Source: Escherichia coli
GTDB lineage: Bacteria > Pseudomonadota > Gammaproteobacteria > Enterobacterales > Enterobacteriaceae
Direction: 5' to 3' (one strand)
Assembly: GCF_003334785.1 (NCBI RefSeq)
Contig: NZ_QOWV01000002.1
Length of the DNA: 64,000 nucleotides
The position numbers were made by a program, and so were the translations under genes. The notes under the pieces are model-generated. The model made no database searches. It had not been told where the DNA came from and worked only from the letters and a program-made list of their open reading frames with translations. Of this stretch, positions 5,252 to 49,651 are shown piece by piece (the first letter of the stretch is position 1; each line of letters opens with the position of its first letter).

Positions 5252-5405
5252 TAGCAGATAAATAGTGACAATTCCATACGTATTATTAGTTTCAAGAGCA
5301 TCATAACATGAATGTTAAGCAGGAAAACGTGAGATATTCAGTCAGGCCGGGTCGTTATCCAGACGTTGTTATATTTAATATCATAAATATTTAAAGGGGT
5401 TTGAC

Positions 5406-6122
5406 ATGGAATGGTTAAGTGAAATTCGTAAACTTCGGAAGAACGTACCTGTCGGTATCCAGGTTGCCAGACGTTTGTTAGAGAGGACTGGCGGTGATGT
5501 TGATGAAGCCATCAAGTTGTTTCATATTGACCAAATCAATATATTGACGGCAAAAGCAGACGTCACTCATCAGGAAGCAGAGAATGTTTTGTTGGCTACA
5601 AACTATGATATTGCAGAAGCTCTTCGGCGTATTGATGAACAACGCTATACACTGACGGAATTGATTTTGCGTAAAAATAAGGATGCCGGAGATGCCTTAA
5701 ACAATATAGCATTGGCGATTGAATATGAGTGGGATCTCAAGCGTAAGTTTTGGTTTGGTTTTGCAGATATCCAATTATTACCGCCAGTTTTACAAACATT
5801 TATGCTGGTTTATGAATGGCATGAATATGTTGGTTGGGAAGGAATGGAGTGTGGGATATTTTTTGAAAGTGATCATACTCACCAGCAATTGCAAGCTTTG
5901 GGGTTATTAGAACTCGCCCAAAAAATGGTTACTGCAAGAATCCGATATGATGAGCTAAAAGACAAGGCCGAAAATTTTCACGAGATTACAGAGGATGACA
6001 TATTCAAAATGCTTATAATACATTGTGACCAACTTGCAAGAGAGGTTGATTCTATATTACTGCAATTTGTGAAGGACAATATTGATGTTTTCCCGTGTCG
6101 CCATAACAGACACGAGTTATAA
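5406..6122 (+). CDS. yfbN: Uncharacterized protein YfbN with N-terminal tandem EF-Ts-N/UBA-like motifs
   Basis: 238-aa ORF; residues about 5-40 (IRKLRKNVPVGIQVARRLLERTGGDVDEAIKLF) and about 50-75 (QEAENVLLATNYDIAEALRRI) resemble the EF-Ts N-terminal UBA-like fold pattern. Confidence 0.75.
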   Translation: MEWLSEIRKLRKNVPVGIQVARRLLERTGGDVDEAIKLFHIDQINILTAKADVTHQEAENVLLATNYDIAEALRRIDEQRYTLTELILRKNKDAGDALNNIALAIEYEWDLKRKFWFGFADIQLLPPVLQTFMLVYEWHEYVGWEGMECGIFFESDHTHQQLQALGLLELAQKMVTARIRYDELKDKAENFHEITEDDIFKMLIIHCDQLAREVDSILLQFVKDNIDVFPCRHNRHEL

Positions 6123-46670: not shown

Positions 46671-48956
46671 TCAGATCTTACATGCGCCGCTTTCGCAGCC
46701 ATCGTCCTGGATTGACGGCACCAGATCGTCTTGTGCGTCTTCAGCGCCGTCACGGGTGTTCTGATAATACAGTGTTTTGACCCCGAATTTGTAGGCGGTG
46801 AGCAGGTCTTTCAGCAACTGCTGCATCGGCACTTTTCCTGACGGGAAGCGTGACGGATCGTAGTTGGTGTTGGCAGAGATCGACTGATCGATAAATTTCT
46901 GCATGATACCCACCAGTTGCAGATAACCATCGTTACCCGGCATTTCCCACAGCAGCTCATAGGCGTCGTGCAGGTGCTCGTAGTCCGGCACCACCTGGCG
47001 CAAAATACCGTCTTTCGACGCTTTGATGCTGACGTAACCGCGCGGCGGTTCAATACCGTTAGTGGCGTTAGAGATCTGCGAAGAAGTCTCGGACGGCATC
47101 AGAGCAGAAAGCGTGGAGTTACGCAGACCGTGCGTTTTGATTGACTCACGCAGAGCTTCCCAGTCGTAATGCAGCGGCTCATTAGCGATGGTATCCAGAT
47201 CTTTCTTATAGGTATCGATCGGCAGGATCCCTTTCGCGTAAGTGGTTTCGTTAAACCACGGGCACGCGCCTTGCTCTTTCGCCAGCTCATTAGAGGCTTT
47301 CAGCAGGTAATACTGAATGGCTTCGAAGGTTTTATGCGTCAGGTTGTTGGCGCTGCCGTCGGAGTAGCGTTTACCGTGCTTCGCCAGGTAGTAAGCGAAG
47401 TTGATCACACCAATACCCAGCGTACGACGACCCATCGCTCCACGTTTGGCGGCCGGGATCGGGTAATCCTGATAATCCAGCAGCGCGTCAAGTGCACGAA
47501 CCGCCAGAATTGCCAGCTCTTCCAGTTCATCCAGGTTATTAATTGCGCCCAGGTTGAAAGCAGACAGCGTACACAGCGCGATTTCACCGTTCTCGTCGTT
47601 GACGTCGTTCAGCGGTTTGGTCGGCAGGGCTATCTCCAGGCACAGGTTAGACTGACGCACTGGCGCGATGGCCGGATCAAACGGGCTATGGGTATTGCAG
47701 TGGTCAACGTTCTGAATATAGATACGACCGGTAGACGCACGTTCCTGCATCATCAGCGAGAACAGCTCAACGGCTTTCACACGCTGCTTGCGGATGCTGT
47801 CGTCTTTCTCATATTTGGTATACAGACGTTCAAACTCTTCCTGATCGGCGAAGAACGCGTCGTACAGCCCCGGTACGTCGGACGGGCTGAACAGGGTGAT
47901 ATCTTCACCTTTCAGCAGACGGGTATACATCAGTTTGTTGATTTGTACCCCGTAGTCCATATGACGCACGCGGTTGCCTTCCACACCACGGTTGTTTTTC
48001 AACACCAGCAGGCTTTCCACTTCCAGATGCCACATCGGGTAGAACAGCGTTGCCGCACCGCCGCGCACACCGCCCTGAGAGCAGGATTTCACCGCTGTCT
48101 GGAAATGTTTGTAGAACGGAATGCAGCCGGTATGGAACGCTTCACCACCGCGAATCGGGCTACCCAGCGCACGAATACGCCCGGCGTTGATGCCGATCCC
48201 GGCACGCTGGGAAACGTATTTAACAATCGCGCTGGAGGTGGCGTTGATGGAATCCAGGCTGTCACCGCACTCGATCAGTACGCAGGAGCTGAACTGACGA
48301 GTCGGGGTACGCACGCCGGACATGATTGGCGTCGGCAGCGAAATTTTAAATGTGGAAACCGCGTCGTAAAAACGCTTCACATATTGCAGGCGCGTTTCAC
48401 GCGGGTAGTTCGAGAACAAGCACGCGGCAACTAGAATATAAAGGAACTGGGCGCTCTCATAGATTTCGCCGGTCACGCGGTTCTGTACCAGATATTTGCC
48501 TTCCAGCTGCTTAACGGCAGCATAAGAGAAGGTCATATCACGGTCGTGATCGATAAAGGTGTCCATCTGCTTGAACTCTTCTTCCGTGTAGTCTTCCAGC
48601 AGATGATTATCGTATTTGCCCATCTCGACCATTTTCACCACGTGGTCGTACAGCGCAGGCGGCTCAAACTGGCCGTAGGCTTTTTTACGCAGGTGGAAGA
48701 TCGCCAGGCGCGCGGCGAGATACTGATAATCCGGCGCATCACGGGAGATCAGGTCTGCGGCAGCCTTGATAATGGTTTCGTGGATGTCAGAGGTCTTGAT
48801 ACCGTCATAAAACTGAATGTGGGAGCGCAGCTCGACCTGGGAAATCGAAACGTTATGCAGTCCTTCTGCCGCCCAATCCAGAACGCGATGGATTTTGTCG
48901 AGATTGATGCGCTCTGTGCTACCGTCGCGCTTTGTCACCAGCAGATTCTGATTCAT
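46671..48956 (-). CDS. nrdA: Class Ia ribonucleotide reductase alpha subunit NrdA
   Basis: 761-aa ORF with ATP-cone N-terminus ([29 protein letters not shown]). Confidence 0.95.
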
Positions 48957-49033
48957 GTATGTCGTACCTGTTTTTGGAATTCTTTCCGCAATAGTTTCAT
49001 GCAGACTACCTGTAGTACGGGAAGCTGCTTAGA

Positions 49034-49079
49034 ACACTATATATAGGGGGTATGTTTGGGATTCACTGCAAGATAGTGT
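49034..49079 (-). promoter_or_regulatory. Candidate tandem NrdR boxes in nrdA promoter
   Basis: ACACTATATATAG (49034..49046) and a degenerate AGATAGTGTG partner about 32 bp away; about 80-120 bp upstream of nrdA start. Confidence 0.45.
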
Positions 49080-49104
49080 GAAAATGACCCTCTTGCAAGT
49101 GCAT

Positions 49105-49113
49105 AACTTTGTG
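49105..49113 (-). promoter_or_regulatory. DnaA box (TTATCCACA) upstream of nrdA
   Basis: Plus strand gtggataac is the reverse complement of the DnaA box consensus. Confidence 0.45.
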
Positions 49114-49651
49114 GATAACTCAGGAAGGAAAAAGTGGCTTTCGCGCACCTTAGGTCAGACAAGGTGTCCGGGAAAGTCAATGGGAAGAGAAAAATTTGTT
49201 AAAAATAACTGTTCGGCGATTTCTTGAACGGCATAATAGGTTAGATAAATTGATATAGATGGTTTATTAATCTTTTTGCTAATGATTGCAAAAATTGATC
49301 TAAGCACGAGTCATCACATAATCTGATGTATCAGTTGTGGTCAATATATAAGCGAATGTAAGAGATTGTTGATGGCGAAATGGTTGTTTTCTATTCGGTT
49401 ATTGTTAAATGCTAAGCCATTTTGTTAATTTACCTTATATTATAAGAAAATTATTCATGACTTTAATTTAGTTTAAATATAACTGATATCCCTGAAGGTT
49501 ATTAACTTGAATTATGACGCACTGATATTATTCATCAAATAATAACAAAATAGCCATTGCACCGGGTTGAACAATTTACAAAAGAAAGATATTCCATATC
49601 GTATAATGCGATTAAATACGCCGTCTTATAGAAAATGATGGTTAGATTAAT

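Follow-up and report, generated by a model that had tools for sequence, protein, structure and literature searches.

An ancestral nrdAB control region and a probable H-NS silencing tract share the nrdA/yfaL spacer of Escherichia coli

Introduction

What occupies the AT-rich spacer between the divergent genes nrdA and yfaL of Escherichia coli, and which of the two genes does it serve? This question was addressed in a stretch of 64,000 nucleotides of E. coli DNA (the 64-kb window, in whose coordinates all features are given). According to the list of open reading frames and the RefSeq annotation of an identical K-12-type genome, the spacer is flanked on the left by the nrdA coding sequence (46671..48956, minus strand, 761 aa, ATG at 48956) and on the right by yfaL/ehaC (49652..53404, plus strand), which encodes an AIDA-I family autotransporter adhesin of 1250 aa. 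A previous sequence-only reading had proposed that the spacer might hold a nucleoid-protein silencing platform for yfaL, further upstream sites for nrdAB, or an unannotated small RNA or small ORF.

Both halves of the spacer have already been described in the literature. We conclude, with a probability of roughly 0.85, that two regulatory regions with separate origins meet in it at 49230/49231, and that the tract on the yfaL side is an H-NS silencing platform.

Materials and methods

The nrdA loci of 80 Enterobacterales were compared, and the junction between ubiG and nrdA could be scored in 70 species. Published K-12 positions (K) were converted into window positions (W) as W = 48956 + 2342887 - K.

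Results and discussion

Size and composition of the spacer

The spacer measures exactly 695 bp with 33.7% GC, in agreement with the AT-rich divergent region of about 695 bp that had been noted from the sequence. The GC content falls to 28.5% in 49189..49651, while the window has a mean of 51%, and the segment 49190..49639 (28.4% GC) is the 450-bp minimum of GC across the whole window. The A+T content, 49% in the window as a whole, reaches 71.5% over 463 bp, which is a composition of the H-NS type. A very AT-rich stretch had been placed at 49140..49650; such a stretch exists, but it starts near 49185, since 49100..49199 still has 44% GC. The length of the spacer had also been called unusual, and this did not hold, because other gaps in the window reach 691 and 604 bp on a crude ORF map, and species lacking yfaL have 339-630 bp upstream of nrdA. 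The longest ORF within the spacer has 50 aa, which bears out the statement that no ORF of at least 60 aa is present, though RefSeq annotates the 47-aa ypaB as the single feature inside the spacer.

The sequence of the spacer is 100% identical to that of K-12-type E. coli, and the spacer was found in all 5426 of the 5426 complete E. coli genomes searched. An IS1A insertion was observed in the spacer of one E. coli strain, 23CRST009 (hit H1, NZ_AP045766.1, 1566536..1568006). IS1 prefers AT-rich targets, and the insertion fits this preference.

The nrdAB control region

The 274 bp of the spacer next to nrdA, 48957..49230, represent the ancestral region from which the essential nrdAB operon is controlled. 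The nrdA transcription start site (TSS) was mapped to 2342780, with the nrdA start at 2342887 (NC_000913.2), giving a 5′ UTR of 107 nt (Kim 2012); in the window, this corresponds to a UTR at 48957..49063 on the minus strand with the TSS at 49063. Downstream of the TSS lies the NrdR operator (49005..49050, minus strand), of which box 1, CCCCCTATATATAGTGT, was located by string position at 49034..49050 and the core of box 2, ACTACAGGTAGT, at 49005..49016; these two boxes together form the high-affinity NrdR site (PMC12176259). From the spacing to the TSS, the core promoter was assigned to 49064..49098 (minus strand), with TATCTT at 49070..49075 as the putative -10 element and TTGCAA at 49093..49098 as the putative -35 element. 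The weak NrdR "box 0" (49064..49080, minus strand) overlaps the -10 element (PMC12176259 and string position). Two DnaA boxes on the minus strand at 49098..49118, TTATCCACA at 49110..49118 and TTATGCACT at 49098..49106, were found by string search and are also annotated in the copy of this segment carried by phage P1. The elements that had been read from the sequence near 49030..49115, including the NrdR box at 49034..49050 and the DnaA box at 49110..49118, were thus located as described.

Further upstream, two boxes for HusR (YnfL) occupy 49121..49171, namely CACTTTTTCCTTCCTG at 49121..49136 (minus strand) and CAGACAAGGTGTCCGG at 49156..49171 (plus strand); the sequences of both boxes were published in 2026 together with a genomic-SELEX peak (PMC12844172). 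The alignment adds a distal conserved block, 49172..49230, which ends in CTTGAACG and is the last part common to genera without yfaL. According to a review, nrdAB is activated by IciA (ArgP), Fis and DnaA and repressed by H-NS and NrdR (PMC4009431), and the sites for Fis and IciA may lie in 49172..49230. The left 274 bp of the spacer therefore hold the mapped TSS and the NrdR, DnaA and HusR boxes at their published positions, whereas the AT-rich 420 bp lie outside the part that is conserved along with nrdA. H-NS control of nrdAB is reportedly the subject of a 2013 paper by Cendra.

Several minor observations concern this region. In B2 strains of the CFT073 type, represented by about 1100 records, the nrdA 5′ leader lacks 13 bp (GGAATTCTTTCCG) at 48977..48989, immediately ahead of the ribosome-binding region, and the leader is 84% identical between B2 and K-12, the coding sequence 99%. 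A genomic-SELEX table for minor sigma factors lists, under the heading of the heat-shock sigma factor, a ypaB/nrdA peak at 2342846, which corresponds to about 48997, inside the nrdA leader. The position of the DnaA boxes relative to the conserved NrdR box varies among the loci compared (L004-L083): they precede the -35 element in Escherichia, Pseudocitrobacter and some outgroups (Serratia), and they form an inverted pair in the 5′ leader at 36 loci, including Citrobacter, Klebsiella and Pantoea (e.g., L006, about 5900..6000). The idea that the upstream position arose with the insertion of yfaL was rejected, as Serratia, Yersinia and Edwardsiella have upstream boxes and no yfaL, and strain RIT691 carries yfaL yet has its boxes downstream.

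Conservation with nrdA ends at 49230

In 66 of the 70 species with a scorable junction, ubiG is directly followed by nrdA without yfaL, the two genes being 339-630 bp apart (median 415). The remaining four, in which yfaL lies between the two genes, are strain RIT691, a Pseudocitrobacter MAG and two Escherichia genomes. An alignment of the region upstream of nrdA in E. coli with that of genera lacking yfaL extends from the nrdA ATG to about 49230, where the last aligned block reads ...GAAGAAATC...; past this point, the sequence is limited to carriers of yfaL and is strongly divergent among them. Across Escherichia, 48957..49230 retains 93-98% identity, and it is recognisable in genera without yfaL. 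Even its outermost block, 49172..49230, has 93-97% identity to other Escherichia and E. albertii, with a collapse at 49231.

The border is sharp between K-12 and another genome labelled E. coli (L004), in which identity breaks exactly after CTTGAACG at 49230. The two genomes are 97% identical over the first 500 bp of nrdA (48457..48956), 98% over 49064..49120 and 95% over 49121..49230, and only 39-63% identical in four bins covering 49231..49651 and 60% over the first 50 codons of yfaL (49652..49800). A milder divergence is seen in the B2 haplotype (CFT073), with 78-91% identity to K-12 in the tract and 99% in nrdA. The L004 haplotype of the tract was considered as one that circulates in E. 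coli, and this was rejected, since none of the 5426 complete genomes contains it.

Despite this divergence, the minimum 200-bp GC content in the ubiG-nrdA interval is 0.25-0.34 in all four other carriers of yfaL. The composition of the yfaL-side tract is conserved and its sequence is not, and the AT-rich tract 49231..49651 appears to have arrived together with the horizontally acquired yfaL. A few short blocks are nevertheless kept across the divergent haplotypes (TTGAT at 49248, AAATTGAT at 49291, and 49338..49371), which indicates that some sequence-specific sites exist in the tract.

ypaB and the phage copy of the nrdA promoter

The annotated 47-aa ORF ypaB (49084..49227, plus strand; RefSeq) overlies the nrdA promoter and is most likely a chance reading frame over conserved nrdA promoter DNA rather than a real gene. 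Its ATG is replaced by CTG in CFT073, it is unannotated in B2 strains, and its counterpart in the P7-like copy of the segment carries a 1-bp deletion. A scan for Shine-Dalgarno sequences found no convincing one for ypaB. In a genome-wide dCas9 screen, the apparent "essentiality" of ypaB was attributed to the nrdA promoter inside it. Changes in the "ypaB" signal have been described by RT-qPCR and RNA-seq papers in husR and AZT experiments, and they imply some plus-strand transcription over 49084..49227. The Kim 2012 table also contains an antisense TSS within the nrdA coding sequence at 48444 (plus strand; 2343399 on the K-12 minus strand), which was given to ypaB, whose leader would then measure 640 nt. 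An antisense ORF of 421 aa inside nrdA (47169..48434, plus strand) is probably a codon-pattern artefact.

The stretch 49080..49209 is 82-95% identical to the "nrdA-like promoter" of P1, P7, SJ46 and many P1-like phage-plasmids, and copies of it (e.g., L002, 3008..3136; L084, 1501..1615) have been found at 235 places on plasmids of E. coli genomes. The phage copy covers the -10 and -35 elements, the DnaA boxes, the HusR boxes and most of ypaB, and it lies just upstream of hot, which encodes a homologue of the theta subunit of Pol III. Two small ORFs of P1, upfN and upfO, overlap with it, and upfO is the counterpart of ypaB. Unlike the chromosomal spacer, the copy comprises the promoter-proximal part of the nrdA region alone, and the AT-rich tract is absent. 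It was discarded as a new observation, since an "nrdA-like promoter" with a "dnaA box" is already annotated in M95666 and NC_005856.

The yfaL-side tract as a promoter island reportedly bound by H-NS

The AT-rich, yfaL-linked tract (49231..49651) makes up most of promoter island 2342143_534 (about 49167..49700), as placed by composition and by Table 1 of PMC3661553. In that study, Panyukov and Ozoline (2013) listed this island, yfaL(-)/ypaB(-), among 78 promoter islands of MG1655 defined with PlatProm, entered it as "A" in the H-NS column, meaning bound in all ChIP(-chip) studies compared, and marked it as associated with foreign genes (PMC3661553). Shimada (2014) identified the yfaL/nrdA spacer as a genomic-SELEX site of the RpoD holoenzyme and gave it an "HNS" flag (PMC3946193). 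The proposal of a nucleoid-protein silencing platform for yfaL is hence supported by the tables of these two papers and is itself not new. At the other end of the tract, the GadEWX study reported two ChIP-exo peaks given to yfaL, P16 (2342146-2342173) and P17 (2342169-2342207), probably for GadX, which together cover 49636..49697 and straddle the yfaL start codon (PMC4918353 and its supplement).

Our own counts agreed with this classification. Sigma-70-like hexamer pairs matching at least 9 of 12 positions number 11 in 49190..49650, the maximum of the window, which averages 0.57 per 460 bp; when the tract was shuffled with its dinucleotides preserved, 4.6 ± 2.4 pairs were obtained and 2% of the shuffles reached 11, so the excess over composition is modest. 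Like other promoter islands, the region is AT-rich, longer than 300 bp, densely filled with overlapping sigma-70-like start signals, reported to be bound by H-NS and probably poorly transcribed, and it adjoins an acquired gene, as yfaL is missing at 66 of 70 junctions and the tract occurs only with yfaL. No substantial difference from this class was found, apart from the simple hexamer count here exceeding the A+T expectation only modestly. The high-affinity H-NS nucleation motif TCGATAAATT has one match of 9/10 in the tract (TAGATAAATT, 49242..49251), and since thirteen such matches occur in the 64-kb window, this single match carries no weight.

The tract also resembles the upstream regions of other H-NS-silenced adhesin genes of K-12 (the ycgV island in the same table; fim, ecp and sfm). 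In common with them, it is a long AT-rich region preceding a horizontally acquired surface adhesin that is probably silent in the laboratory, with an AraC-family regulator binding at the start of the gene. In contrast to them, yfaL entered immediately next to the control region of an essential operon, nrdAB, and consequently a probable silencing platform and a housekeeping promoter share one spacer.

Alternative explanations

The spacer could alternatively be regarded as a single extended activating or architectural region upstream of nrdAB, over whose 695 bp Fis, IHF or curved DNA would set the cell-cycle-dependent transcription of the operon, with yfaL as a bystander. The known control of nrdAB by Fis, IciA, DnaA, NrdR and H-NS (PMC4009431; PMC12176259) and the 339-630 bp that species without yfaL retain upstream of nrdA would agree with this, as would a minus-strand promoter-like pair (49372..49343) that points to nrdA from within the best-conserved block of the tract. 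We nevertheless consider it very unlikely, because the conservation that tracks nrdA ends at 49230, and the sequence beyond follows the yfaL haplotypes and is missing where yfaL is missing. In addition, nrdA is 97-99% identical between genomes whose tracts are 40-60% identical, which argues that the essential operon tolerates replacement of the tract. The earlier suggestion of further nrdAB upstream sites thus holds up to about 49230, where cross-genus conservation and the HusR boxes (49121..49171) support it, but not beyond.

A second possibility places the control of yfaL in its transcript and not in a silencer at the DNA level. Transcription from a distal promoter would give yfaL an AT-rich leader of about 320 nt, which may act post-transcriptionally, through Rho-dependent attenuation or translational control, and such a mechanism would be compatible with H-NS silencing. 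Leaders that are long, unstructured and poor in C are commonly found on genes acquired by horizontal transfer, and Rho and H-NS often target them. The candidate promoter is a predicted sigma-70 promoter found by consensus scan at 49295..49322 (plus strand; TTGATC-16-CATAAT), some 330 bp ahead of the ATG, whose hexamers are those of the sole yfaL promoter named in the binding study (PMC3946193). Yet the Kim 2012 table contains no TSS for yfaL, at this promoter or elsewhere, the -10 element is not conserved in other haplotypes, the leader has no folding signal, and a perfect TATAAT at 49602..49607 offers a rival, proximal start. Assigning either promoter as the one that drives yfaL is a prediction, and we regard control by the leader in place of DNA-level silencing as unlikely.

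That a small RNA or small protein missing from the annotation is encoded in the AT-rich tract appears extremely improbable. Promoter-like sites are abundant in the tract, the promoter-island paper describes short oligos of 9-14 nt from such islands, an 18-aa ORF at 49372..49428 (plus strand) has a weak AAG-type Shine-Dalgarno sequence, and the annotated ypaB with its shifting signals in husR and AZT experiments lies nearby. Against this, the spacer yielded a single chance snoRNA match in Rfam at E ≤ 10 (E = 9.4), no terminator-like site in a terminator scan, and no folding better than shuffles in 42 sliding windows on both strands (minimum z -1.8, mean -0.1). Neither a promoter paired with a terminator, nor a conserved sequence or structure, nor a known family was thus found for a regulatory RNA. 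The start codon, ribosome-binding site and frame are not jointly conserved in relatives for ypaB or for the 18-aa ORF; the former has CTG for ATG in B2 strains, the latter loses its ATG in CFT073, and a combined scan for Shine-Dalgarno sequences and small ORFs yielded no conserved candidate. The identity of only about 40-60% between Escherichia haplotypes also argues that no product is conserved. In published transcript data, the nrdA TSS is the sole TSS inside the spacer in the Kim 2012 table, the examined part of the Adams 2021 supplement lists no 3′ end for yfaL, ypaB or nrdA, and the SMRT-Cappable-seq supplement does not mention any of the three genes. The small RNA or small ORF proposed from the sequence thus found no support.

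Proposed mechanism and its consequences

We therefore return to the silencing platform for yfaL. With about 71% A+T and many overlapping sigma-70-like hexamers, the tract would be expected to attract both RNA polymerase and H-NS, and together with a short extension into yfaL it probably works by composition rather than by exact sequence. H-NS would nucleate on the tract and spread across the yfaL promoter or promoters and the start codon, so that yfaL would remain silent in laboratory cultures. Regulators of the AraC type that bind where yfaL begins, GadX among them, are candidate counter-silencers. In this scheme, nrdAB would be controlled from the adjoining ancestral 274 bp.

Going upstream from the nrdA TSS, the yfaL-linked tract is reached after only about 170 bp. 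The repression of nrdAB by H-NS could accordingly be a lineage-specific side effect of the acquisition of yfaL, caused by spreading or bridging of H-NS from 49231..49651; we regard this as distinctly doubtful. If it were true, the H-NS effect should be absent in Citrobacter, Klebsiella and Enterobacter, in which ubiG abuts nrdA, and it might not be the same with the K-12 and the B2 haplotype of the tract. Whether the neighbouring island is the source of the H-NS control of nrdAB is a small testable question, and the one mildly novel question that is left. Otherwise, the discovery value is small, as this is the best-studied bacterial genome; what is gained is a map on which the nrdAB control region ends at 49230 and the yfaL-linked, probably silencing tract starts there. 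The sharp border shows that an acquired adhesin gene, in all probability silenced by H-NS, can abut the promoter of an essential operon.

The far edge and the coding sequence of yfaL

Palindromic repeats of the REP/BIME type at 53420..53510 (gcctgatgcgacgct...; ggccggataaggcg...) take up the 127-bp gap in which the ends of the convergent genes yfaL and ubiG face each other, and they form the second boundary of the yfaL insertion. In L004, the ATG at about 5290..5310 that aligns with the yfaL start of E. albertii is out of frame with the remainder of yfaL, as the short stretch directly following it is of a length that differs by one base; an assembly error, the use of another start codon or a frameshift may account for this. 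The 5′ half of yfaL (49652..51200) is a mosaic within Escherichia: CFT073 is 95% identical to K-12 over the first 50 codons, whereas from about 50200 it is 87-94% identical to the L004/E. albertii type and 65-73% identical to K-12. On sequence grounds, this pattern suggests recombination inside the passenger domain of yfaL.
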